Source: Acidobacteriota bacterium
Lineage (GTDB): Bacteria; Acidobacteriota; Vicinamibacteria; Vicinamibacterales; JAMQPK01
Reading direction: 5' to 3'
Assembly (NCBI GenBank): GCA_031395755.1
Contig: JANNJO010000428.1
Coordinates: forward strand, 1 to 60,490
DNA: 60,490 nt
The position numbers were made by a program, and so were the translations under genes. Below the pieces are notes generated by a model, which was given only the letters and a program-made list of their open reading frames with translations, had not been told where the DNA came from and did no database searches. Below are positions 5,471 through 59,802 of the stretch, piece after piece. Every line of letters begins with the position of its first letter. Position 1 is the first letter of the stretch.

Positions 5471-8047
5471 ATGTCCGTATGTGTGCCGATGGCGCCTGCT
5501 AAAGGTAAGGACGTCGATCAGGCGGAGCTTCGGCTCCGCCTGTCCGCGTCGCTCGACGAGGCGCGGCGCGAGCTCGTCGGCGCCACCGAGCGCGGCGAAG
5601 GCGGGCGCATGGCGCTGGCGCGCTTTTCGGAGTGCATCGACGGGATCATCCGCGACCTTGTCGACAGCGCGCGCACCCAGACCGCGGCGTCCCTCGCAGT
5701 GTGCGCGGTCGGCGGGTACGGGCGCCGGTCGCAGTTCCTCCACTCCGATATCGACCTGCTCGTCGTCTTCGGCGGCCCGATCGGCCGCCCGGAGGAGCGT
5801 TTCATCAAGGCGCTGCTGCATCCCCTTTGGGATCTGAAGTTCCAGGTCGGGCATCACGTCCGTGAGATAACCGATTTCGATCGGCTGGACACCGGCAACC
5901 CGGAATATCTGCTCTCGCTGATGGACCTGAGGCGGCTGGCCGGCGACCGCGATCTCCTCGATCGTCTGGAGGGGGCGATCAAATCCTCCGCGCCTCAGTG
6001 GCGCCCGCAGATCCTCGACGCGCTCGTGACGCTGACCGACCAGCGGCACAGCGAGTTCCACGAGACCGTGTACCAGCTCGAGCCGGATGTAAAGGACGGC
6101 CCCGGTGCGCTTCGTGACGTGTGGGCGACCCGGATGCTGCTGCGCCTCGGGGGCGATCGGCGGCACGCGCCGCGCCACGCATCGCCGGATCGGTTGAACG
6201 ACGCCGAAGAATTTCTCATGCGCATCCGTTCGGGCCTGCACCTCGACGCCGGGCGCAACGCGAACGTGCTGAGCTATGAGCTGCAGGAGAAGGCGGCCGA
6301 GCGGATGCGTTATGCCGGACCGGACGTGCGCCGGCGGGTGGAAGCGCTGATGACGGACTACTTCAAGGACGCGCGCAGCGTGACGCGCGCGCTCGGCCGT
6401 GTGCGGCGCGTGGCGGTGCCGCCGCCTCCGACCTCGATTCAGCTGATCGGCCAGAACCTGATGTGGGTGGTCGAAGGCATCACCTTCGACGATGCCGCCG
6501 CCGCCGCGGCATCGCCGGCCGAATGGCTCCGCGCGTTCGACGCCGCCGTGTCGCGCAACGTGCCGGTGGGCGACGATGCGCTGGCGATGATGGAGCGGGA
6601 GCAGCAGGTGCACAACCACGCGCCGGAGGTGTTGCACCCGACGGCCGAGCATCGGCAGCGAATCGTGGAGTTTCTGCGGCCGAGGCCGGGCCTGTCGGCG
6701 CGGCTCAGCGAGATGCGCGACTGCGGTCTGCTGGGCGCCATCTTTCCCGAGCTGAACGAAATTTCGTGCCGCGTGACCCGGGATTTCTACCACAAGTACA
6801 CGGTCGACGAGCACACGCTGCTGACGGTTCGCAACGTCGAACGGCTCCTGAGCAATCCGCGGTTCGGCCCCGTGCTGCGCGATCTGCGCGCGCCCGAACT
6901 GCTCGTCCTGTCGCTGCTGTATCACGACGTCGGGAAAGCCCGGGACGGCGATCATTCGATCGTCGGCGCGGAAATGGCCACCGGCATGATGTCGCGGCTG
7001 GGGCTGGACGACGAGGCGCGTCAGACGATCGATTTCCTGATCAGGAACCATCTGAAGATGTCGCGCGTGGCGTTCCGCCGCGATACCGAAGAGCCCGAGG
7101 TGGTGCGGCAGTTCGCCGCCCTGTTCAGTACGGAAGAGCAGCTGAAACTGCTCGTCCTGCTGACGCTGGCAGACGTCGGGGCCGTGAGCCCCGACACCCT
7201 GACGCCCTGGAAGGAAGAGCTGTTGTGGCGGCTCTACGTCGACGCCTACAACCAGATGACGCTGGGGTACGGCGACGACATCATCGATCGCGAGCAGGCG
7301 CTCGTTGCGGCGCTGCAGGCGAGCCGTCCCGCCGACATTTCGGAATCGGAGATGGCGAGCTTCCTCGAGGGGCTGCCGCGGCGCTATCTCATTCTGTTTT
7401 CGCCTGACGCCATCTATCGCCACGTGCGGCTCTCGCGGGACATCCGTCCCGACGAGGCGCATTTCTTTCTCGAAGAGAAAGCCAAGGCGTGGGAGCTGAC
7501 GGTCGTTTCGCTCGACAAGCCGTTCCTGTTCTCGAACATTTGCGGCGTGCTCGCCTACTTCGGGATGGATATTCTCCGCGGTCATGCGCTCACGAGCCTG
7601 GCGGGGACGGTCCTGGATGTCTTCGAGTTCGCCGACTCCGGCGAATTCTTCGAGCGCAACTCGGAAGGGCGGAAGGAGTTCGACCGCCGCCTCCACGAGG
7701 TCGTCAACGGCCAGGCCGACGTCACGACGCTGCTCAGGAGCAAGGAGCGGAGCGTGTTGTTCCGGCGCGCGCTCGTCCGCCGCCAGCCCGTCGTCTACTT
7801 TGACAGCGGCCACTCGCAGCGGTACACCGTGCTCGAGCTCGTGGCGGAGGATGCGCCCGGGTTGCTGTACCGGGTCAGCCGGGTCATCTCGGATCACGGG
7901 ATCGACGTCGATCTCGTGTTGATCTCGACCGAAGGACAGAAAGCCATCGACGTATTTCACATCACTCGCGGCGGGGCGAAGCTTTCGGAAGACGCCGAGG
8001 CGGCGTTGAAAGCGGACCTCGAACGCATGCTGAAGGAGAGCGCATGA
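5471..8047 (+). CDS. glnD: [protein-PII] uridylyltransferase / uridylyl-removing enzyme
   Basis: 858 aa. Nucleotidyltransferase motif GGYGRRSQFLHSDIDLLVVF, an HD domain (LLYHDVGK) and two C-terminal ACT-like regions. The stop overlaps the PII start (ATGA at 8044-8047). Confidence 0.9.
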   Translation: MSVCVPMAPAKGKDVDQAELRLRLSASLDEARRELVGATERGEGGRMALARFSECIDGIIRDLVDSARTQTAASLAVCAVGGYGRRSQFLHSDIDLLVVFGGPIGRPEERFIKALLHPLWDLKFQVGHHVREITDFDRLDTGNPEYLLSLMDLRRLAGDRDLLDRLEGAIKSSAPQWRPQILDALVTLTDQRHSEFHETVYQLEPDVKDGPGALRDVWATRMLLRLGGDRRHAPRHASPDRLNDAEEFLMRIRSGLHLDAGRNANVLSYELQEKAAERMRYAGPDVRRRVEALMTDYFKDARSVTRALGRVRRVAVPPPPTSIQLIGQNLMWVVEGITFDDAAAAAASPAEWLRAFDAAVSRNVPVGDDALAMMEREQQVHNHAPEVLHPTAEHRQRIVEFLRPRPGLSARLSEMRDCGLLGAIFPELNEISCRVTRDFYHKYTVDEHTLLTVRNVERLLSNPRFGPVLRDLRAPELLVLSLLYHDVGKARDGDHSIVGAEMATGMMSRLGLDDEARQTIDFLIRNHLKMSRVAFRRDTEEPEVVRQFAALFSTEEQLKLLVLLTLADVGAVSPDTLTPWKEELLWRLYVDAYNQMTLGYGDDIIDREQALVAALQASRPADISESEMASFLEGLPRRYLILFSPDAIYRHVRLSRDIRPDEAHFFLEEKAKAWELTVVSLDKPFLFSNICGVLAYFGMDILRGHALTSLAGTVLDVFEFADSGEFFERNSEGRKEFDRRLHEVVNGQADVTTLLRSKERSVLFRRALVRRQPVVYFDSGHSQRYTVLELVAEDAPGLLYRVSRVISDHGIDVDLVLISTEGQKAIDVFHITRGGAKLSEDAEAALKADLERMLKESA

Positions 8048-9822: not shown

Positions 9823-9896
9823 GATGGCGGGACGGTCCCGATGGCGGGACGGATCCCGATGGTGGAACGGATCCCGATGGTGGGACGGATCCCGAT
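9823..9896. repeat. 18-bp tandem repeat (minisatellite), 4 full units plus a partial one
   Basis: Units GATGGCGGGACGG(A)TCCC at 9823, 9840, 9858 and 9876. The fifth unit (9894) runs into the REP hairpin. Intergenic. Confidence 0.9.
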
Positions 9897-9921
9897 GGTG
9901 GGGTCCGGCTTTAGCCGGACC
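9897..9921 (+). repeat. REP-like hairpin, intergenic copy
   Basis: GGTGGGGTCCGGCTTTAGCCGGACC, differing from the 9461 copy only in one loop base. Confidence 0.9.
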
Positions 9922-9924
9922 GCC

Positions 9925-10192
9925 GCGGATGAGCCTGACACGCGATCCTGGCGTGATTCTTGTTCACGTCGGATGCGTGACCGCGCATCCAGAGCGCCTC
10001 GAATCCTTTGACTAGTTTGCAATTCTTGCGTACTGTTTCATGCCGGACCACGTGCACGTCATTGTGCGAGGCGGCAGTGAGACGGCAAACCTCAAAACGT
10101 TTGCGTCGAAAGCAAAACAGTGCAGTGGGTACGCCTACGCACAGCAAAACGACAAAAAGCCGAACCCCACAGATTTCCTACCCCAGCAATGA
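9925..10192 (+). pseudogene. decayed RAYT / IS200-like (HUH Y1) transposase remnant
   Basis: One frame reads ...VILVHVGCVTAHPERLESFD*FAILAYCFMPDHVHVIVRGGSETANLKTFASKAKQCSGYAYAQ..., with an in-frame TAG at 10013-10015. The HUH motif (HVH) is in its typical hydrophobic context. The C-terminal catalytic Tyr region is missing, and the remnant ends overlapping the PfkB gene. Confidence 0.5.
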
Positions 10193-11098: not shown

Positions 11099-12127
11099 CT
11101 ACTGAATGCTGGCGACCTTGACCGGCTGGCCTGTGCGATGCGCCGCGGTGGCTGCCAGCGCGATCCGGAGGGCCTCCACGCCGTCCTTGATGACCACGGG
11201 CGGGACGCGATCGTGCAGCACGTTCTGCGCGAAATTCTGAAGCTGAATGGTGTAGGCGCGCTCGAACCGTTCCATGAAATAGGGCACCGTGTCATGCGTC
11301 ACGCTGTTCTTCGTCAGCGTCACAATCGGCGTTTCGCGAAGGTACCCGACGCGGACGGTGCCGGCGTCTCCAAGCAGCTCGGTGCTGATGTCGTATCCGT
11401 ACACGCCGTTCCGCGTCAGGTCAATCACTCCCAGCCGCCCGTCGGCAAACACCAGCGTCGCAATCGCGTTGTCGATGTCCCCGATCGAGGCCATCTCGGG
11501 ATAGGCAAGCACCGCGCCTACGGCGGACACCGTGTCGACCTCACCCATGAACCATCGGGCCAGATCGAAGTCGTGAATCCCCATGTCGACCATGATGCCG
11601 CCGCTGCTCGCCGGGTTCGCGTACTCGAGGCTGGGGCGGAACGGATCGCGCGAGGTCGACTTGAAGACCACGGGCCTCCCGATCGCCCCCTGGGAAATCT
11701 TCTCCTTCGCCGCCGCGTATCCCGGATCGAAGCGGCGCATGAAGCCCATCTGGAAGAAGGCCCCGGACGTCTCCACGGCGTCCGACATCGCGGCGCACTC
11801 GGCCAGGCTGAGGGCCGGCGGTTTCTCGCAGAACGTCGGCTTCCTGGAACGGGCCGCAGCCACCACGATCTCTCGATGGGTATGCGTCGGGCTCACAATG
11901 ACGACGGCGTCGACGTCGCGGTCGGCCATCAACTCTTCAGGAGAGCTGTACGCCTTCGGCACGTCGAACTCCTGCGCGATGCCTGTGGCCAGCGCGTGAT
12001 CCGTATCCGCGACGGCGACGACCGTCGTCTCGGAAATGCGCGCCGTCAGATCGCGGACGTAGACCTTTCCGAGACGCCCCAGGCCGACCACGCCCACCTT
12101 CAGCCGAGTGCGATTCTTCGAGGTCAT
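11099..12127 (-). CDS. Gfo/Idh/MocA-family oxidoreductase (inositol/sugar dehydrogenase-like)
   Basis: 342 aa with an N-terminal Rossmann motif [10 protein letters not shown] and the EKP motif (FCEKPPA). Confidence 0.85.
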
Positions 12128-12155
12128 CTCAGGCGGTGCTAGTGTATCTCAGCCC

Positions 12156-13598
12156 GTGCAGTATTTACTCGAAGTGGAGGGCGTGCGGAAGACCTTTCCG
12201 GGCGTCGTCGCGCTTGACGGCGTGTCGCTGAAGGTCCGCCAGGGCACCGTGCACGCGCTGATGGGCGAAAACGGTGCGGGCAAGTCGACGCTGATGAAGA
12301 TCATCGCCGGCCTGTACCGGCCCGACACCGGCCGCGTCACGCTGCGCGGCCGCACCGCGATGATCCACCAGGAGCTCACTCTGCTCCCCTCGATGACGGT
12401 TGCCGAGAACATCTGGATCGGCCGCGAGCCGCTGACCCGGATCGGGTTGATTGATCATCGCGCGCTCGACCGGAGTACGGTTGAGCTGCTCGCCGGATTG
12501 AACGTCGACATCGGACCCGGCGAGCGAATCTGCGAGCTGACGATCGCCGGCAGGCAGATGATCGAAATCGCGCGCGCGGTCTCCTACGAGTCCGACATCC
12601 TCATTATGGATGAGCCCACCTCGGCGTTGTCCGAGCCTGAAGTGGATCATCTCTTCCGGATCATCGCGGATCTGAAGGCCCGCGGCAGCGCGGTGATCTA
12701 CATCACGCACAAGATCAACGAAGTATTCAGAATCGCCGACGAGGTGTCGGTCCTGCGCGACGGTCGAATGGTCGGCTCGGATACCGTGGACAGGATGGAC
12801 CGCGACCGGCTGATTTCGATGATGGTCGGACGGGAGCTGACGCAGTTGTTCCCGAAAGACAACACCCCGGGCGATCGCGTGGCGCTGTCCGTGAACGCGT
12901 TGTCGCTGGCGGGGACCTTTGCCGACGTGTCGTTCGACGTGCGCGCGGGGGAAATTGTCGGGATTGCGGGCCTGGTCGGCTCCGGGCGGACAGAAGTGGC
13001 CGAGACCATCTTTGGCCTGAGGCGGGCGACGTCGGGCGAGATCCTGATCGACGGGGTCGGGGTGGACATCGATTCTCCAGCGACGGCCATCGGTCGCGGC
13101 ATGGCGTTTCTCACCGAAGATCGGAAGATGAGCGGGCTGTTCCTGCCGTTGAGTGTTCAGGAAAACATGGAGGTGACGGTGCTGAACGGCCGGTTCATCA
13201 CCAGGGGCTTCGTCCGACAAGGCAGGCTGCGCGCGGCGTGCAGTGCGATGGCGGCGACACTGCGGGTGAAGGCGCCAGACCTGTTCGAGCCCGTTCAGCA
13301 TCTCAGCGGCGGCAACCAGCAGAAGGTGCTGGTCGGCCGCTGGCTGTTGACGTCCCCGCGCATTCTGATCCTCGACGAGCCCACGCGCGGCGTCGACGTG
13401 GGAGCCAAGGCCGACATTCACCGGCTGATTTCCAGCCTGGCTGCCGGAGGCGCGGCGGTCGTCCTGATCTCGTCGGAGATGCCGGAGATTCTCGGGATGA
13501 GCGACCGGGTGATGGTCATGCGCGAGGGCCGCGTCGCGGGCATTCTCGACCGCGGCGACGCCAACCAGGTGGATCTTATGAGGCTGGCCGCGAATTGA
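12156..13598 (+). CDS. sugar ABC transporter ATP-binding protein (duplicated ABC domains, RbsA/MglA-like)
   Basis: ORF 12108-13598. Walker [10 protein letters not shown], signature LSGGNQQK, two ABC halves. The start is uncertain: GTG 12108 overlaps the divergent gene, and in-frame GTG codons at 12156 or 12174 are more plausible. Confidence 0.9.
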
Positions 13599-15511: not shown

Positions 15512-15666
15512 ACAGTCGGCAGTCGACAGTCGACAGTGATCAGTCTGAGTCGCCAGTCATCGCCTCAGTCGGGCAGTCGTGCCTCGCGACTCCGGACTGA
15601 GGCTTGTCGGACTGGGACTCTCGACTGCTGACTGGGACTGATGACCGACGACTGCCGACTAACGAC
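15512..15666. repeat. palindromic heptamer-word element (family 1, AGTCGNN / NNCGACT), locus A
   Basis: Fills the whole gap between the TGA at 15507-15509 and the convergent TAA at 15667-15669. The left half is built of CAGTC words and the right half of GACTG words. Perfect inverted repeats are 15514-15525/15649-15660 (12 bp) and 15563-15570/15595-15602 (8 bp). Confidence 0.9.
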
Positions 15667-17232
<1,566 letters not shown>

Positions 17233-17337: not shown

Positions 17338-18429
17338 GTGCCAGCCTTTGAGACCCTCGACCCCGAATTGCGGGGCGTCCTCGGCAAGCGGATCCGCGAG
17401 CTGGGGCTGCGCCTCGAGGGATCGCCTGTCGAGCCGTACGTGCGCCAGCTCTACAAGGAGCTCGAGCGGCGCGGCATGCACAAGTTCCGGCCCGTCTGCT
17501 ATCTCACCGACGAGTGGGGGTGTCCCGACATGCAGCCGGTGCTCGGCATCCCGTTTTATCTGGCCGACCCGAACCTCGGCAAGCTGGAGCGCGCCATCGA
17601 TGATCTCGAGGATGGCCGGGAGATCATGCGCTACATGCGGCACGAGGCCGGGCACGTCTTCAACTACGCGTACCGCCTCTACACGCGCCCGGACTGGCGC
17701 GCGACCTTCGGCCCGTTCGACCGGCCGTATCGTGACAAATACCGGCCCATCCCGTTCAGCCGCAACTACGTGCGCCACATGGAAGGGTGGTACGCGCAGA
17801 AGCACCCCGACGAGGACTTTGCGGAAACCTTCGCGGTGTGGCTGACTCCCGGAAGCGCGTGGCGCCGCCGATATAAAGGCTGGCCGGCGATGCGCAAGCT
17901 CCGATACGTGGATCGGATGGCGCGCGCCTTCGGCGATCAGGAGCCGATCGTGCGGACCGGTGAGGTCGACATCACCGTCGATGACATGCGACTGACGGTC
18001 GAGGAGTTCTACCGCCGCGCCGAAAAAGAGCGCGACATGCGGATTGATCTGGCCATGGACGGGCACTTATCCGAGATTTTCCTCACAAGAAAGCCGCGCG
18101 AGGGGCGCCTGGCGGCCACCATCGTCACGAAATACCGCCGCGAGCTGATCGACAAGATCACGTACTGGACCGGCGTAAGACGGCCCGTGGTCCGCGGCCT
18201 GGTCGAGGCAATCTGCAAGAACTGCGAGCGCCTGAAGCTCTGGGGAGAGATCGGCCGCGAGCCGGTCTACCTGGTCGAGCTGACCGCGTTCGGCACGACG
18301 CTGGCGATGAATTTCCTGACTCGTGGTACCTTCACGGGGGACACGGGGAGGAAAACAAAAGTTGAAGGTAAAAAGTCTAAAGTAGCAAATAAGTCGACAG
18401 TCGACAGTCCAAAGACCGCGGCGACCTGA
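17338..18429 (+). CDS. putative zinc metallopeptidase (HExxH; Peptidase_Mx-like)
   Basis: ORF 17284-18429 (TTG 17284 or GTG 17338). HEAGH motif in MRHEAGHVFNY, with a conserved DEDFAETFA downstream. The last ~25 aa are AT-rich, low-complexity and repeat-derived. Confidence 0.65.
   Translation: MPAFETLDPELRGVLGKRIRELGLRLEGSPVEPYVRQLYKELERRGMHKFRPVCYLTDEWGCPDMQPVLGIPFYLADPNLGKLERAIDDLEDGREIMRYMRHEAGHVFNYAYRLYTRPDWRATFGPFDRPYRDKYRPIPFSRNYVRHMEGWYAQKHPDEDFAETFAVWLTPGSAWRRRYKGWPAMRKLRYVDRMARAFGDQEPIVRTGEVDITVDDMRLTVEEFYRRAEKERDMRIDLAMDGHLSEIFLTRKPREGRLAATIVTKYRRELIDKITYWTGVRRPVVRGLVEAICKNCERLKLWGEIGREPVYLVELTAFGTTLAMNFLTRGTFTGDTGRKTKVEGKKSKVANKSTVDSPKTAAT
18392..18408. repeat. family-1 heptamer words inside a CDS tail (locus B)
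   Basis: AGTCGACAGTCGACAGT is identical to 15521-15537. Confidence 0.8.
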
Positions 18430-34891: not shown

Positions 34892-35419
34892 ATGAAGCGC
34901 TACGTTCCGTTCTTCGTTATTCTGTTGACCGTTTCCTCGGCGGCGCAGCAACCCGCACCGCCAAAACCACCGGCTGCACCTCCGGCTCCCAGTGCGCCCG
35001 CAGCACCGAAGCCGCCGCCGCCGAGCCCGGATATCGATCCGTTAAGGGGACAGCGCGTCAACATCCGCTTGGATGTGTCGGTCAGTGACCAAAGCGAAGT
35101 TGTGCCGAATCCGCCAAAGACGTTGATGGTTATGCTGGCGGACAGAGCGCTCGGGCGAACGCGCGGCGCCTTTGAAGATCGGTCGATCTCTGTTGACGCG
35201 ACGCCTATCATCGTCGATGGTCGCATTCGTCTGAGTCTCACGATTGAGAGCCGCGCCAATACCGGCCCTGGCAAGCCCCCACCCGATCTCACTCTCTTCT
35301 GGCAGAATTCCTTCTCGCTCCTGCTGGAGAACGGACAACCGATGCTGGCGTTTGAAACGTCGGATCCAATAGCCAAGCGGAAGCTCGCGATCGAGGTGAA
35401 GGCAACAATTCAGAAGTGA
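34892..35419 (+). CDS. secreted hypothetical protein with a Pro-rich linker
   Basis: Signal peptide MKRYVPFFVILLTVSSAAQ, followed by a PAPPKPPAAPP low-complexity stretch and a beta-rich domain. Confidence 0.55.
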   Translation: MKRYVPFFVILLTVSSAAQQPAPPKPPAAPPAPSAPAAPKPPPPSPDIDPLRGQRVNIRLDVSVSDQSEVVPNPPKTLMVMLADRALGRTRGAFEDRSISVDATPIIVDGRIRLSLTIESRANTGPGKPPPDLTLFWQNSFSLLLENGQPMLAFETSDPIAKRKLAIEVKATIQK

Positions 35420-35423
35420 CGCG

Positions 35424-35458
35424 TGACTGACGACCGACGACTGCCGACCGACGACTGT
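35424..35458. repeat. family-1 heptamer array (five units), locus C
   Basis: TGACTGA CGACCGA CGACTGC CGACCGA CGACTGT lies between the TGA at 35417-35419 and the convergent stop at 35460-35462. The 17-nt block 35432-35448 is identical to 15643-15659. Confidence 0.9.
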
Positions 35459-42853: not shown

Positions 42854-43516
42854 GTGAAATTGGCGATCAAACGCAAACAACTCAGCGACCAGGTCTCCGA
42901 GCTCACGACCAATCGCCTCTCGGTGTACCTCCGATGCCTCAACTCTCTGGATGCGGCAGGAGTGAAGACCGTGTCGTCGCAGTCGCTGGCGCACCAGTTC
43001 CACCTGAACGCGGCGCAGATTCGGAAGGACCTGGCGAATTTCGGCGAGTTCGGCGTCCGCGGGGTCGGCTACTACGTCAAGGATCTGCAGCAGCATCTTC
43101 GGCAGATCCTGGGACTCGAGCGACGGCTGAAGGTCGCGATACTCGGCGCGGGGAACCTCGGCCTCGCCCTCGCGGACTATCCGGGCTTCCGTCAGGAAGG
43201 ATTCCAGATGGTCGCGTTATTCGACGCGCTCTCGTCGAAGGTCGGGCAGCGTTCGCGGGCGGGCGTGCCGATCTTCGACATCAAGGATCTCCGGAAGATC
43301 GCGGCGCGCGAGAAAATCGCCATCGCCGTCATTGCTGTCCCCGCCGACTCGGCCCAGCACGTCGTCAATCAGGTGGTCGCCGCCGGCATCAAAGCGATCC
43401 TGAACTTTTCACCAGGAACGCTGCGAGCCCCCGACGATGTGAAATTGAAGAGCGTCGATCTGACCGTCTCGCTCGAAAGCTTGTCGTTCTACCTTGCGCA
43501 GGAAGAGGAAGAGTAG
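42854..43516 (+). CDS. rex: redox-sensing transcriptional repressor Rex
   Basis: 220 aa. Winged-helix N-terminus (RLSVYLRCL...SSQSLA) and a Rossmann NADH-binding motif (VAILGAGNLG). Confidence 0.9.
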   Translation: MKLAIKRKQLSDQVSELTTNRLSVYLRCLNSLDAAGVKTVSSQSLAHQFHLNAAQIRKDLANFGEFGVRGVGYYVKDLQQHLRQILGLERRLKVAILGAGNLGLALADYPGFRQEGFQMVALFDALSSKVGQRSRAGVPIFDIKDLRKIAAREKIAIAVIAVPADSAQHVVNQVVAAGIKAILNFSPGTLRAPDDVKLKSVDLTVSLESLSFYLAQEEEE

Positions 43517-43555
43517 GGATTAGGGATTGGGGATTAGGGATTAGGGATTAGATTA
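43514..43555 (+). repeat. TAGGGAT heptamer array (family 3, telomere-like, G-tract rich), locus F left arm
   Basis: TAGGGAT TAGGGAT TGGGGAT TAGGGAT TAGGGAT TAGATTA. It begins with the rex TAG stop and ends at the ATG of ORF 43555. Confidence 0.9.
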
Positions 43556-44136
43556 TGGCGGTACAAAGACGTGAGGCGCGACGACTGCCACGGCGACGCA
43601 GAACTAATCCCAAACCCCCGAGCCCTGATCCCCGGCAACTGTCACACGTCGACACGTCCGGGCGTGTCCGCATGGTGGACGTCGGGGACAAGGCGGAGAC
43701 GGCGCGCGAAGCGGTCGCTCGAGGCCGCATCAGCGTCGGCGCGGCAGCGTTGCGCGCGATTCGTGCCGGTAAGGTGAAGAAAGGGGACCCGCTCCAAACC
43801 GCCAGGCTTGCGGGCATCGTCGCGGCCAAGCGCACGTCCGACTTGATCCCTCTCTGCCATCCGCTGCCGATTTCGCACGTCGACGTCGAAATCACCCGTG
43901 TGAAGAACGGCTACACGATTGAATCCCGGGTGCGGACGACCGCGAGAACCGGCGTCGAGATGGAAGCGCTCACGGCGGTGGCCATCGCAGCGCTCACGAT
44001 CTACGACATGCTGAAAGCGATCGACAAGACAATGGTCATCGGGGAGATCTGCGTGCTCGAGAAACGGGGAGGACGCTCGGGGGAGTACCTTCGGAGTCGG
44101 CAGTCGGCAGTCGTAAGGCGTAAGGCCAGGAAGTGA
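43555..44136 (+). CDS. moaC: cyclic pyranopterin monophosphate synthase MoaC
   Basis: Conserved core from LSHVDTSGRVRMVDVGDK to EKRGGRSGEY. The first ~28 aa (from ATG 43555) and the last 15 aa are encoded by repeat elements. Alternative in-frame starts are CTG 43639 and ATG 43672. Confidence 0.85.
   Translation: MAVQRREARRLPRRRRTNPKPPSPDPRQLSHVDTSGRVRMVDVGDKAETAREAVARGRISVGAAALRAIRAGKVKKGDPLQTARLAGIVAAKRTSDLIPLCHPLPISHVDVEITRVKNGYTIESRVRTTARTGVEMEALTAVAIAALTIYDMLKAIDKTMVIGEICVLEKRGGRSGEYLRSRQSAVVRRKARK
43604..43633 (+). repeat. C-tract partner arm of locus F
   Basis: CTAATCCCAAACCCCCGAGCCCTGATCCCC. Its first 8 nt are the perfect complement of 43544-43551, and further C-tracts face the G-tracts. 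Confidence 0.75.
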
Positions 44137-44221
44137 GTACCGACGGAGACTCTCGACTGCTGACTGGGACTACTGACTGCTGACTGAGACTGACGACTAA
44201 CGACTGCTGACTGACGACTCC
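44093..44221. repeat. family-1 heptamer-word element with 22-bp terminal inverted repeats (MITE-like), locus D
   Basis: GGAGTCGGCAGTCGGCAGTCGT (44093-44114) matches the reverse complement of 44200-44221 (GGAGTCGTCAGTCAGCAGTCGT) at 20/22. The 24-nt block 44148-44171 is identical to 15616-15639. Confidence 0.85.
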
Positions 44222-45114
44222 TTCGGTGGCGGTTCAATGTGGATGATTGCATCCGCGATTTGCGGATAACGTTCCATCAGGAGATCCTTCACCTGGTGCG
44301 ACACGGCGTGCGCATCGGTGAGCGGGGTCGCGCCATCCAGCCAGACGTGGAGATCGAGAAAGACGTGGTCGGCCGAGCCGCGGGAACGGATGTGGTGGCA
44401 GCCAAGCACGGTGGGCACGCTTTGCACGACCCGCCGGACATCGTCCTCGGAAATCACAATCGCATCCGACAGAATCTTGGCGGCATCGCGCGCGATGGTG
44501 AAGCCCGCATAGCCGATGAAGCCGATGATGACGACCGCCGCGAGCGGATCGAGAATGGGATACCCGATGGCCGAGCCCGCGAGCGCGGCGATGACCGCAA
44601 TCGACGTCAGCACGTCGCTCTGCGTGTGGCGCGCATCGGCGAGCAGCAGCTCACTGGAAAGACGCCGGCCGGCCCCGCGTTCGAACCGCACGACGGCTAT
44701 ATTGATGGCCAGCGTGGCGAACATGATGGCGAAACTGGCCGCTGTGACGGACGGCGCGCCGCCGGTCCGAAACCTGGCGAAGGCCAACTGCGCGATTTCG
44801 ACGACGATCACGAGGAGGAAGAGCGCGACGGCCGCGGCTGCGAGCGTTTCGAACTTTCGGTGGCCGTAGGGATGATTGGCATCAGGCGGCTTGTTCGCGA
44901 GCCGCAGACCGACGAGCGCCACGACGTTCGACGCGCCGTCGGTCAGGGAGTGGAACCCATCCGACAGAATGCTGATCGAGCCGGTCAGGTGGCCGAAGGC
45001 GACCTTGGTGAGTGCGACGGCCAGGTTGAGGAGAAGGATGCGGAGGAGGACGCGCCGGACTTCGCGGTAGCGGGAGTCGCGGGTTAGAAAAGTCGTGCGG
45101 TCGGTATCGGCCAC
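44197..45114 (-). CDS. cation diffusion facilitator (CDF) family metal efflux transporter
   Basis: ORF 44197-45243. GTG 45114 is the last canonical in-frame start before TM1. Contains SILSDGFHSLTDG and HPYGHRKFE motifs and a C-terminal cytoplasmic domain. Confidence 0.85.
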   Translation of the reverse strand: MADTDRTTFLTRDSRYREVRRVLLRILLLNLAVALTKVAFGHLTGSISILSDGFHSLTDGASNVVALVGLRLANKPPDANHPYGHRKFETLAAAAVALFLLVIVVEIAQLAFARFRTGGAPSVTAASFAIMFATLAINIAVVRFERGAGRRLSSELLLADARHTQSDVLTSIAVIAALAGSAIGYPILDPLAAVVIIGFIGYAGFTIARDAAKILSDAIVISEDDVRRVVQSVPTVLGCHHIRSRGSADHVFLDLHVWLDGATPLTDAHAVSHQVKDLLMERYPQIADAIIHIEPPPKESSVSSR

Positions 45115-45713
45115 CAGCGGATTTGCACCTTCCCGATGATGTAGCGCTTCGGCACGAAGCCCCAGTGGCGGCTGTCTGAGCTGTTGTTCCGGTGATCGCC
45201 GAGCACGAAGTAGTAGCCTTCGGGAATCACCTGCGGGCCCCAATCGTCGTGCGCCCGGTAGTCTTCCGGCACGAAGTCGTCTTTCATGGGCGATTCGTTG
45301 ACGAACACGTTGCCGTCGACGATGCGCACCGTATCGCCTTCTTCGGCGATCACGCGTTTGACGAACGACTTGTTGGGATCGATGGGGTAGTACAGCATCA
45401 CGATGTCGCCGTGATGCGGCTCGCCGATGCGATAGGCGAGCTTGTTGACGATCAGACGATCCTGATCTTCGAGCGTCGGCGCCATGCTCATGCCTTCGAC
45501 GCGTGCGACCTGGAAGCCGAAGGTGACGATCAGTGTGGCGTACACCGCTGCCGACGCCAGTGTCTTGAACCAGGCGACGAGCTCGTCGCGGACCAGCTGC
45601 AGCCGCTCCGCGGTCTTGGACCGGGCCGCGGGGTCGGCAGGCACCGGCACGGTGACGATGACGGGAGCGACGACCGATCCCGCTGACGGGTCGCCGGCCA
45701 GGGCGGGCTCCAT
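45084..45713 (-). CDS. lepB: signal peptidase I
   Basis: 209 aa with GMSMAPTL (catalytic Ser) and the GDHRNNSSDSR box. Confidence 0.9.
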   Translation of the reverse strand: MEPALAGDPSAGSVVAPVIVTVPVPADPAARSKTAERLQLVRDELVAWFKTLASAAVYATLIVTFGFQVARVEGMSMAPTLEDQDRLIVNKLAYRIGEPHHGDIVMLYYPIDPNKSFVKRVIAEEGDTVRIVDGNVFVNESPMKDDFVPEDYRAHDDWGPQVIPEGYYFVLGDHRNNSSDSRHWGFVPKRYIIGKVQIRWWPIPTARLF

Positions 45714-50437: not shown

Positions 50438-50486
50438 GCAGAGAGGGCAGAGGGCGGAGGGAAGAGAACTTAGAACTTAGAACCTA
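50438..50486. repeat. seven phased heptamers (family 4): GCAGAGA GGGCAGA GGGCGGA GGGAAGA GAACTTA GAACTTA GAACCTA, locus G
   Basis: Starts 2 nt after the TGA at 50434-50436 and runs across the convergent stop (50470-50472) into the last 5 codons of the glycosyltransferase. Confidence 0.9.
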
Positions 50487-51600
50487 GCGCCAGGATCTCA
50501 TCCGCCGCGACGTCAGCGCCGTTCAGCGCGGGTGTTTCAGGCGGCGCCGGCTGGCTCAGCAGCGCCTCGAGCGCCGGCGCCCAGTTCCCCTTCAGCAAGT
50601 CCTCCTGCTCGATGAACTGCGCGCGGAGATAGCGCGGCATCTCTCGCACGAGCACCTCGTATTCGACGAAGCGGCCGCGCGACGTGTAGAGGATGGCCGT
50701 ATCGTTGGCGATCGATTCGCTGATGATCCCGTAGCCGGGTTTCGTCACGACGACATCTGCGGCGCGGACGAGATCTTCGTACCGATACCCGTCGGCGTGC
50801 AGTTGCTGCTCCGACAGATAGAGCACCCCCGGCGCCAGTTCGATCGCATGATCGCGGGTGGGCAGGTCGGTCGTCGCGATGCGGTAGTCTCGCAGCGCGC
50901 CGACCCTGCTGCTCTCGAGGTCCGCCAATCCGTACCCACCGAATGACATCAGGACGAGCGGCTTGTCCCCTGCGCGCGGCGGCAGGCCGAGCGCTCGCCG
51001 CACCTCATCCGGTTCGCGCCGCGATTGCCGGGCGACGAAAGGGATGTCGCGCGTGACGCGCTCGAGTCCCGCGAAACCTCCGGACGCGGGGAGCCGCAGC
51101 GCCCTGGTCGCCTTCTGGTAGGTTGCGCGAATCTCCTGCGAGAGCTCGAAAGGCGACTGCTCCGGGTACCCCTCGTAGATCCAGTCCCACGTGAAGTTGC
51201 CGATCGCCACCGCAGGTACACCGGCGGCGGCCGCCGCCGCAAAGGCCAGCGGCGGAATATCGCCGACCACCACTCGCGCGCCCGCCTGCCGAAGAAATGC
51301 GGCTTCGCTCTCGGCTTTGTGCGGCAGCTCTGCCTGAAACGCCCGTGCCTGCCTGATGCTCTCAGCTTCGTCGATATGAAGACTGTCGATCTGGACCATG
51401 CCGGTGTCGCATGACAGCTCCGCGAACTCGATTCGACCCGCCAGCGCGCGTTCGAACAGGCGTCTGGGCGCCGGCGTCTTTACAACAATCGCGGCGTCCG
51501 GCCGGCGGCGAAGGACCGCCTGGATGACTTCGATGGTCCGCGACGTGTGGCCGAAACCGTGCCCCGACACGTAAAAGACGATGGGATATGATGGGCTCAT
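50470..51600 (-). CDS. glycosyltransferase (GT-B fold, MurG/GT28-like)
   Basis: 376 aa. N-terminal FYVSGHGFGHTSR and a C-terminal nucleotide-sugar-binding-like region (VVTKPGYGIISE). Confidence 0.65.
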   Translation of the reverse strand: MSPSYPIVFYVSGHGFGHTSRTIEVIQAVLRRRPDAAIVVKTPAPRRLFERALAGRIEFAELSCDTGMVQIDSLHIDEAESIRQARAFQAELPHKAESEAAFLRQAGARVVVGDIPPLAFAAAAAAGVPAVAIGNFTWDWIYEGYPEQSPFELSQEIRATYQKATRALRLPASGGFAGLERVTRDIPFVARQSRREPDEVRRALGLPPRAGDKPLVLMSFGGYGLADLESSRVGALRDYRIATTDLPTRDHAIELAPGVLYLSEQQLHADGYRYEDLVRAADVVVTKPGYGIISESIANDTAILYTSRGRFVEYEVLVREMPRYLRAQFIEQEDLLKGNWAPALEALLSQPAPPETPALNGADVAADEILALGSKF

Positions 51601-57565: not shown

Positions 57566-58474
57566 TTATTTCGACAGCCGCGCTTCGATCGGTCCGAGCG
57601 ACCCAAGCACGACGTCACCGACGATCTGCAGGCTGCGCGCCGAGGTCTGGTCCAGCGTGTCGCCGGCGGTGTGCCAGGCGGGGTAGTCGAGGTCGATGAT
57701 GTCGGTGGCCGGTACGCCGGCTTTCAGAAACGGGACGTGATCGTCTTCGATGGGCGTGTTCGCGTTGACGAAGACGGCGCCGTGACCCAGACGCTGGGCG
57801 GTGGTCCAGATGATGTCGGTGAGCCACGGCGTTGAATTGGTCTCGCGGATGAAGCGCTGGGAGCGTTCGGCGATCATGTCCACCAGCACCAAGGCCTTCA
57901 GGCCGGACAGCGTTCCGGAGTTCCGGGCGTGATCCACGTAGTACTGGCTGCCGTAGGTGTGGTCCGTCCCGCCCCAATCCCGCAGCGTGGCCTCTTCGCC
58001 GTCGAAAAAAATCAGCTCGATTGTGAACGCGTTCGGCCGGCCCTTCAGCACGCGCGCCAGTTCAATCAGGAACGCCGTGCTCGAGCCGCCGTCGTTGGCG
58101 CCCACGAACCGGAATTCCCGGAACAGCTTCGTGTCGTAGTGGCCGGCGAGGGCGATCCGTTCTTTGCGCGCGCCCGGGATCGTGGCGATCAGGTTCACCA
58201 TCGGAATCTCGCCAATGGGGGTCTTCGCCGTGAACGGCTGCCGAACGACCGTCACGCCTGCCGTCGTGAGCTGCTCGATGATATAGCCGCGGGTGCGCTC
58301 GATGGCAGGAGAACCCGCCGGCCGCGGTCCCAAGGCCACGACCTGGCGCAGGTGCTCGTACGCGCGGGCGGCATCGAAGACGGCTTCTGGCTTCCGGCCC
58401 TGGGCTTCGGGGCTGGTCGCGCACGCGACGACGCCGATGAGCGCCAGGACCCAGAACCTAGAACCTGGAACCAA
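57566..58474 (-). CDS. M28-family peptidase / glutaminyl-cyclase-like
   Basis: 302 aa. AGHYDTK, GANDGGSSTA and FFDGEEA motifs. TTG start at 58474. N-terminal residues VPGSRFWVL are encoded by heptamer repeats. Confidence 0.85.
   Translation of the reverse strand: MVPGSRFWVLALIGVVACATSPEAQGRKPEAVFDAARAYEHLRQVVALGPRPAGSPAIERTRGYIIEQLTTAGVTVVRQPFTAKTPIGEIPMVNLIATIPGARKERIALAGHYDTKLFREFRFVGANDGGSSTAFLIELARVLKGRPNAFTIELIFFDGEEATLRDWGGTDHTYGSQYYVDHARNSGTLSGLKALVLVDMIAERSQRFIRETNSTPWLTDIIWTTAQRLGHGAVFVNANTPIEDDHVPFLKAGVPATDIIDLDYPAWHTAGDTLDQTSARSLQIVGDVVLGSLGPIEARLSK
58447..58474. repeat. family-4 heptamers GGACCCA GAACCTA GAACCTG GAACCAA, locus H
   Basis: Uses the same GAACYTA word as 50466-50486. 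It covers the first 9 codons of the M28 gene and ends 2 nt from the gltA stop. Confidence 0.85.
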
Positions 58475-58475
58475 T

Positions 58476-59753
<1,278 letters not shown>

Positions 59754-59759
<6 letters not shown>

Positions 59760-59802
59760 CAGTCGTCAGTCATCAGTCGTCAGTCGTCAGTCGTCAGTCG
59801 CA
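59754..59802. repeat. family-1 heptamer array, seven units AGTC(A/G)TC, locus E
   Basis: AGTCATC AGTCGTC AGTCATC AGTCGTC AGTCGTC AGTCGTC AGTCGCA. It contains the gltA start codon (59757-59759) and the yacG stop (59787-59789). Confidence 0.95.

Follow-up and report, generated by a model that had tools for sequence, protein, structure and literature searches.

The DNA analysed here, hereafter the window, is a stretch of 60,490 nucleotides from an Acidobacteriota bacterium of the order Vicinamibacterales (contig JANNJO010000428.1 of GenBank assembly GCA_031395755.1). The feature under study occupies positions 44093-44221, where two convergent genes meet: moaC, coding for cyclic pyranopterin monophosphate synthase, and a gene for a CDF transporter (Table 1). 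Translating the open reading frames (ORFs) places the TGA of moaC at 44134-44136 and the TAG of the CDF gene at 44197-44199 on the minus strand, both within the repeat region described below. The conserved core of MoaC extends as far as ...GGRSGEY-L-R, the final 13 codons being drawn from the repeat, and that of the CDF protein to ...IIHIEPPP(K), followed by seven final codons of the same origin. Both tails lie outside the conserved domains recognised by Pfam, the ZT_dimer match stopping 10 residues short of the CDF stop. The window's CDF protein is taken here as the maximal ORF, compared with a called length of around 303 aa for its orthologues. No recorded protein is identical to the window's MoaC, as judged by exact look-up.

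An earlier, sequence-only reading of this DNA had described the feature as resembling a MITE (miniature inverted-repeat transposable element), with 22-bp terminal inverted repeats, a possible 7-bp direct repeat and stop codons donated to both flanking genes. As a description of sequence features this stands. The inverted ends, the pair of CCTTCGG words at 44088-44094 and 44220-44226 and both stop codons are all present at the coordinates given there. That the repeat supplies the last residues and the stops of both genes is borne out by the ORFs and by the orthologous junctions, to which the statement can be extended.

Closer inspection of its anatomy puts the feature in a different light. Tandem Repeats Finder (TRF) shows 44093-44221 to consist almost entirely of tandem 7-nt units, with period 7 called at 44091-44113, 44112-44126, 44155-44213 and 44182-44219 alongside a period-20 call at 44142-44219. 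Two arrays can be distinguished, separated by a short non-repetitive centre (Table 1). The left array is translated as the MoaC tail S-R-Q-S-A-V-V-R-R-K. The right array, which on the minus strand, the coding strand of the CDF gene, reads CAGTCNN, carries the CDF stop and the tail E-S-S-V-S-S-R. The inverted ends arise because two arrays of one unit family face each other. Thus, positions 44093-44114, GGAGTCGGCAGTCGGCAGTCGT, and the reverse complement of 44200-44221, GGAGTCGTCAGTCAGCAGTCGT, are identical at 20 of 22 positions, and a repeat search extends the inverted pair to 32-nt arms (44093-44124 and 44190-44221; 84% complementarity, 65 nt between them). Since the arrays face each other across the 23-nt centre, either strand is able to fold into a long imperfect hairpin. 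The predicted minimum free energy is -61.8 kcal/mol for the plus strand (z = -2.55; 3 of 200 dinucleotide shuffles as good) and -55.4 kcal/mol for the minus strand (z = -4.0; none of 200 shuffles as good). Rfam at its gathering threshold finds one tRNA in the window and no match at 44093-44221. Taking these results together with the comparisons below, we regard the feature, with good though not complete confidence, as a compound simple-sequence repeat made of two opposed arrays of 7-nt units, and not as a transposon.

Orthologous spacers

A scan of metagenomes with the CDF protein retrieved some 30 loci at 76-90% identity which, together with loci L081 and L083, gave 22 distinct moaC-CDF junctions; a further contig, P0022, contributes gene order only. 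The order rex-moaC-CDF-lepB is conserved in the closer relatives. Among the matches listed, MoaC homologues in metagenomes reach 93% identity, the taxon-bearing source name there being "Acidobacteria bacterium". Among species-representative genomes, the nearest of the matches listed are Acidobacteriota/Vicinamibacterales metagenome-assembled genomes (MAGs), whose MoaC proteins are 67-75% identical. In these MAGs a co-directional gene directly follows moaC, with no array and no orthologous junction.

Measured from the GEY motif of MoaC to the EP motif of CDF, the 22 spacers span 11-221 nt and nearly always consist of short tandem units, the type of unit differing from locus to locus. Encountered are CAGTCGN, TAGTCGG, AAGTCGA/AAGGCGN, AGATTGG, CAATTGN, CGTCCAT, CACCAAC and a 9-mer, GGTGCGNNN, that is paired with CTACCNG; the arrays run from 3 to more than 15 units. 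In the window's clade (L083 and L084/85; also L081, L082 and L092) the array sets in at one shared codon, ...GAR-TAC-NTN-CGG-AGTCG..., while its content and length vary. L084/85 has three units on the moaC side only, the right arm being absent. At L091 an array is lacking altogether, and the last 28 nt of moaC and the CDF gene overlap, each gene being closed by a stop of its own. Overlapping or abutting genes were probably the ancestral arrangement.

The number of residues following EPPP in CDF ranges from 2 to 20 and that following GEY in MoaC from 3 to 43, the upper value coming from L081, where it is to be treated cautiously (see below), and no two lineages have tails alike. The flanking ORFs simply run into the arrays until a chance stop is reached. 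In the CAGTCGN orientation, arrays made of the usual variants here (N being G, T or A) are free of stops in every frame, so that a gene reading into the array gains a variable tail rich in S, R, Q and V. Stops in this orientation arise only from variant units, for example where a unit ending in T is followed by one beginning AAG- or AGT- (giving TAA or TAG). The CGACTGA orientation has stops in all frames. The hypervariable, repeat-derived tails of MoaC and CDF are probably functionless.

Close pairs of sequences differ by whole blocks. The MoaC proteins of P0048 and P0057 are near-identical apart from one 21-nt block (SRKAQVG), and a single block of about 19-20 nt separates L107 from L108, which are 98.6% identical. 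The orthologous loci show graded variation in the type and number of units and not a single element that is either present or absent.

The same comparison explains the CCTTCGG words, which had been put forward as a possible target-site duplication. The left copy corresponds to the MoaC codons TAC-CTT-CGG (Y-L-R), orthologues having CCTGCGG, CGTGCGG or CCGTCGG in its place, and Y-x-R is kept even in MoaC homologues without arrays. The right copy corresponds to CCG-AAG-G (P-K-E) of the CDF gene on the minus strand, where orthologues have TCTTTCGG, CTCCTGAGG or CCTTAGG. No flanking duplication is present at any of the orthologous loci read at the nucleotide level, and none at the second inverted copy in the window, at 15512-15670. 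The direct repeat is therefore real, in that CCTTCGG stands on both sides, but it is a coincidence between conserved codons of two coding sequences.

Two of the loci have peculiarities of their own. In L081, at 6551-7433 and 11540-12250, the CDF protein is called as two ORFs, one matching ZT_dimer and the other Cation_efflux, and a methyltransferase gene is also seemingly split; these are probably frameshift errors of assembly. In L082, where MoaC is 86% identical, the moaC array is followed, at 2470-2753, by a CACCAAC array, DNA of low G+C content and an ORF, with no CDF gene there. Judged by eye, the ORF is a candidate IS630-family transposase, resembling the helix-turn-helix region at the N-terminus of such enzymes, and the missing CDF gene suggests that the array was the site of a rearrangement or insertion.

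Inverted symmetry

Although built of different units, 12 of the 22 spacers have predicted folds with z ≤ -2 on both strands, and one is borderline. Inverted symmetry is also evident beyond this junction. Of 71 distinct period-7 arrays across all loci examined, 47 are accompanied by two or more inverted units within 160 nt and 18 by further direct units, counts that are not independent since some of these loci are related. The sequence-only reading had recognised in 44093-44221 a repeated, inverted-symmetric type of sequence, and in this it was right: the window holds a further inverted pair of CAGTCGN arrays (Table 1).

The 3' end of the CDF gene retains a hairpin in still more distant relatives. 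In the MAG represented by L002 the hairpin is AGAATCC ... GAATTCT, and the convergent neighbour is not moaC. In a group with 56-63% CDF identity, hairpins of the form CAAATCC ... GGGATTT occupy the CDF 3' end with z from -3.7 to -6.2. The sequence that follows them seems, when read by eye, to be a co-directional gene (conserved ATGGCGAACCCGGACT...). In this group, as in L121 and L114, a module of about 110 nt, CAAATCC ... GGGATTT, fills exactly the interval from the CDF stop to a conserved CAGGCATCCGGATTGC, and L117 lacks precisely this module. The conserved flank itself holds a palindrome, ATCCGGAT, with the same core as the array units.

Inverted pairing is thus general and non-random in these arrays, and the hairpin at the CDF 3' end outlasts complete turnover of its sequence. 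Such pairing fits either selection for pairing or mutational copying of one arm from the other.

Transposon-based explanations

These comparisons bear directly on the proposal that a MITE, having terminal inverted repeats of 22 bp and a target-site duplication of 7 bp, moved in between moaC and the CDF gene, bringing their stops with it. The 20/22 inverted repeat flanked on both sides by CCTTCGG favours that assignment, but both copies of the supposed duplication are conserved codons and the ends are heptamer arrays with no unique terminal sequence, in which the variable position drifts between loci and only the 7-nt word is held in common. A second inverted copy with a 24-nt exact block common to both, at 15512-15670, would likewise suit a mobile family, yet alignment of the two window copies finds nothing in common beyond heptamer words and no unique internal sequence. 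Flanking duplications are lacking both there and at the orthologues read at the nucleotide level, which is what the sequence-only reading had itself named as evidence against an element. MITEs with internal minisatellites have been reported (PMC4596501), but here the orthologues vary continuously in the kind and number of units. The 60-kb window contains no related autonomous transposon with matching ends. The empty site at L091 is no precise excision product. It also answers a caveat already attached to the MITE proposal, namely that conceptual excision would leave both genes without a stop: at L091 the genes overlap and each has its own. In termini, in duplication and in empty site the feature fails to behave as a MITE, and we give that origin almost no credence.

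A different mobile source would be a REPIN-like doublet, that is two inverted sequences of the repetitive extragenic palindromic (REP) type spread by a REP-associated tyrosine transposase (RAYT) of the Y1/HUH kind. An inverted pair forming a hairpin, placed outside genes and present in many copies, with a 24-nt run of units common to two loci, would be expected of such a doublet. The window even contains a potential relict of the enzyme. At 9823-9902 lies an 18-nt unit, GATGGTGGGACGGATCCC, repeated 4.5 times, each copy with a small palindrome, and about 110 nt downstream, at 10016-10189, a truncated ORF, FAILAYCFMPDHVHVIVRGG..., with an HUH motif (FAILAYCFMPDHVHVIV) gives a weak match to Pfam Y1_Tnp (IS200/RAYT-like; E = 5.5e-4; score 20.5 bits, cut-off 23; positions 42-85 of the 121-position profile). 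This looks like a decayed Y1 transposase beside REP-like hairpins; however, it is truncated and sub-threshold, and its neighbour is the 18-mer array instead of heptamers. Furthermore, the arrays consist of 7-nt tandem units of many unrelated sequences with no one conserved palindrome of 20-40 nt, and at orthologous positions an array persists through turnover of its sequence, a pattern more suggestive of evolution in place than of repeated insertion. We consider a REPIN-like origin highly improbable.

Origin and possible role of the arrays

If the feature is a compound simple-sequence repeat, its arrays would grow and shrink by replication slippage, a process supported here because whole blocks of units are gained or lost between near-identical sequences. 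Template switching inside the quasi-palindrome might keep the two arms alike, or selection might favour their pairing. Template switching in quasi-palindromes is established from mutagenesis in E. coli. Once transcribed, the hairpin could provide both convergent mRNAs with a 3'-end structure that blocks transcription, protects against 3' exonucleases, or does both. By analogy with the 7-bp repeat hairpins between cyanobacterial genes, for which such a role has been proposed, and with REP elements, where it is known, we think it probably is such an RNA 3'-end structure, shared by the two transcripts and dispensable. Any such function would be dispensable because many orthologous spacers have no hairpin.

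Several observations weigh against this interpretation. Slippage by itself leaves the common unit of the two arms unexplained. The hairpin is G+C-rich, like that of an intrinsic (Rho-independent) terminator, but a scan of 43300-44500 for terminators and promoters found no terminator-like site and no U-tract 3' of the stem, and it is coding sequence that flanks the stems. In nine of the 22 spacers the arrays give no significant hairpin, and one spacer lacks an array altogether, so a hairpin function is not universal. Nor does any one RNA role cover all the arrays, given those in a single orientation and those at gene 5' ends (at 35425, 59752 and 18392). The empty and filled sites of L117 and L121 fit insertion of a whole module as well as they fit its deletion. 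Finally, an exact 24-nt run, GACTCTCGACTGCTGACTGGGACT, comprising three to four unit variants, occurs at both 15616-15639 and 44148-44171 and is absent from all 163 loci examined. With the limited pool of unit variants, the chance probability of this match is estimated at about 0.05-0.2; the sharing accordingly lends weak support to copying, or gene conversion, from array to array, or it may be chance.

Much the same facts would suit the idea that the arrays are neutral slippage debris with no function in RNA or DNA, their inverted symmetry being an unselected by-product of mutation, for example of fold-back template switching. The spacers without hairpins or arrays, the missing U-tract, the extreme variation in the number and type of units and the occurrence of arrays in all contexts, gene starts included, are what this idea would lead one to expect. 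It accords less well with inverted partners being far commoner than further direct ones (47 against 18), or with the persistence of the CDF 3'-end hairpin over CDF identities of 56-90%, with entirely different units and different downstream neighbours. We regard neutral debris as doubtful, although as a possibility to be taken seriously. At the other extreme, Vicinamibacteria-like Acidobacteriota might have a dedicated means by which interchangeable heptamer arrays are made into intergenic hairpins and kept as such, whether by active homogenisation of the arms against each other (for example hairpin-templated repair or template switching), by copying of modules between loci or through a binding protein with heptad spacing. 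This we think unlikely. Were it true, the arrays would be no passive microsatellites; they would provide regulated, lineage-specific control at 3' and 5' ends and a route to the rapid evolution of protein termini.

Distribution and relationship to known repeats

Repeats of period 7 are characteristic of the wider lineage. They account for seven of the 10 TRF arrays in the window, for 29 of 46 in close relatives and for 35 of 43 in the more distant group with 56-63% identical CDF proteins, as compared with six of 31 in 564 kb of other genomes. Heptanucleotide arrays filling the spacers between genes are therefore a lineage-wide class in Vicinamibacteria-like Acidobacteriota. Within the literature searchable, we found no description of heptamer or tandem arrays in Acidobacteria or Vicinamibacter. 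The class of bacterial repeat is already known; what seems new here is its presence in this phylum, and the series of orthologues that goes with it is unusually clear. Other explanations for the architecture, namely a CRISPR array, a low-complexity protein-coding domain and an artefact of assembly, were considered and rejected on anatomy alone; this architecture recurs in many independent assemblies.

The closest known relatives are the heptanucleotide long simple sequence repeats (SSRs), including the short tandemly repeated repetitive (STRR) sequences of cyanobacteria, the TAACTGA repeats and the GGGNATC/GGGGAYT repeats. Heptanucleotide repeats are the commonest class of long SSR in bacteria and have been ascribed to slippage (Mrazek 2007, as summarised in PMC4679880). 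STRR sequences can form 7-bp repeat hairpins between cyanobacterial genes, for example hupS and hupL, where they have been proposed as transcript stabilisers or terminators (PMC2670836). As in the present case, those of heterocystous cyanobacteria are tandem intergenic 7-bp units, with several unit families per genome, variable copy number and hairpins. Unlike them, the arrays described here belong to an Acidobacteriota host of about 64% G+C, have different unit sequences and routinely enter the 3' and 5' ends of conserved ORFs. Turnover of units at one orthologous spacer is demonstrated here, and we found no description of it for STRR. The classical STRR units CCCCAGT (ACTGGGG on the other strand) and CAACAGT (ACTGTTG) presumably share an ACTG core with the units here; a literature search on these unit strings returned unrelated papers only.

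The TAACTGA repeats known from Beggiatoaceae, Cyanobacteria and Bacteroidetes lie for the most part between genes and frequently border on start or stop codons (MacGregor 2015, PMC4679880). The xxACTGA orientation has stops in all frames while the opposite orientation is open and is translated into the ends of ORFs (PMC4679880). The arrays here are again dominant heptamer SSRs, intergenic, with one stop-rich and one open strand, and the CGACTGA units at 59752-59800 differ from TAACTGA at only two positions. In the Maribeggiatoa (BOGUAY) genome, 169 direct sets of TAACTGA compare with one indirect repeat, most lying just upstream of start codons (PMC4679880). Here, in contrast, inverted pairs predominate, many unit types coexist and the 3' ends of convergent genes are favoured. 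Xanthomonas and Nostoc contain quadruplex-forming heptamers, GGGNATC and GGGGA(C/T)T (Rehm 2015, PMC4692102). The TAGGGAT/TGGGGAT array at 43514-43551 is of this kind, being G3-N4, situated between co-directional ORFs and no more than 50 bp from a start codon, whereas the CAGTCGN feature lacks any basis in G-tracts.

The feature resembles MITEs in its small size, inverted ends and multiple copies, and differs from them in having no target-site duplication, unique core or conserved termini and in its graded change between orthologues. The REP, bacterial interspersed mosaic (BIME) and REPIN elements of proteobacteria are extragenic hairpins, often paired in inverted orientation at gene 3' ends, and are linked to protection of mRNA 3' ends. 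REPs are, however, conserved palindromes of 20-40 nt moved by RAYT, in contrast to the tandem 7-mers of changing sequence seen here, which have no common palindrome.

Implications

For annotation, the results serve as a warning that heptamer arrays able to form hairpins are prone to being taken for MITEs or other elements with terminal inverted repeats. The arrays also shift called starts and stops: MoaC homologues here range from 144 to 217 aa, much of the spread being due to repeat-derived extensions at both ends. Short-read assemblies are broken by such arrays, with three contigs ending inside them; L098 terminates in a long, near-perfect array of AGTCGTC x15 at 2399-2501, and L102 and L106 in one of GGACGAT x8 at 2356-2447. 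What is known of the functions of MoaC and CDF is unaffected.

More broadly, the heptanucleotide repeats of cyanobacteria, Beggiatoaceae, Xanthomonas and Burkholderia are extended to the abundant and poorly studied Acidobacteria of soil. The moaC-CDF series, in which units turn over completely and inverted symmetry is often kept, provides a natural data set on selection for hairpins and co-evolution of their arms.

Other repeats in the window

The window contains about nine period-7 arrays in its 60 kb (Table 1). A strict scan for period 7 gives seven matches, compared with none in shuffled sequence and none for periods 8-12; with the exception of the MoaC tail, all lie outside gene interiors.

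Table 1. Genes and heptamer arrays at the moaC-CDF junction and elsewhere in the window
Feature	Position	Strand	Evidence and context
moaC, cyclic pyranopterin monophosphate synthase	43555-44136	+	Pfam PF01967, E = 4e-55, residues 40-173 of 193
CDF transporter, convergent with moaC	44197-45243	-	Maximal ORF; Pfam PF01545 (Cation_efflux) and PF16916 (ZT_dimer)
Left array, (G)AGTCGG-CAGTCGG-CAGTCGT-AAGGCGT-AAG	44093-44124	+	TRF and arm 1 of inverted repeat; sense direction of moaC
Hairpin centre, 23 nt, non-repetitive, with moaC TGA	44125-44147		Sequence and fold
Right array, about 11 GACTNNN units (GACTCTC, GACTGCT, GACTGGG etc.)	44148-44221	+	TRF and arm 2 of inverted repeat
Inverted pair CAGTCGN / NCGACTG	15512-15670	+	Fold -96 kcal/mol, z = -6.4; between convergent genes for a periplasmic binding protein and a sigma-54 activator
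AGTCGAC x2.6	18392-18409	+	TRF; just upstream of ORF start at 18429
GACTGAC-GACCGAC-GACTGCC-GACCGAC-GACTG, single orientation	35425-35457	+	TRF; between convergent ORF 34892-35419 (+) and DUF4159 gene (-)
TAGGGAT x5.4, ending in the moaC ATG, with degenerate inverted partner AATCCCN	43514-43551 and 43596-43630	+	TRF
AGAGGGC x3.6, then AGAACTT x3.3	50442-50487	+	TRF; between convergent genes, the minus-strand gene reading into the array
AGAACCT-type units x3.4	58449-58472	+	TRF; junction of two minus-strand genes
TCAGTCG x7	59752-59800	+	TRF; on the minus strand, CGACTGA units directly upstream of, and into, the citrate synthase ATG (58476-59759, -)

The array upstream of moaC has its inverted partner, AATCCCN, in the 5' extension of the gene, and a hairpin around the start codon is predicted for 43514-43630 (-54.6 kcal/mol, z = -4.4). 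The corresponding spacer holds 14 TAGGGAT units in L083, about one in L081 and none in L082. The G3-N4 spacing of the TAGGGAT/TGGGGAT array is that of a quadruplex motif, and the N-termini of homologous MoaC proteins ('NPKSQIPNP...') look like translated arrays of the TAGGGAT type. Downstream of the methyltransferase gene, L081 has no array corresponding to 50442-50487, which is thus not common to both. The AGAACCT units at 58449-58474 overlap the start of a minus-strand ORF whose N-terminus, (M)VPGSRFWVLALIGVVAC..., resembles a lipoprotein signal peptide, so that the opening residues of a signal sequence seem here to come from an array.

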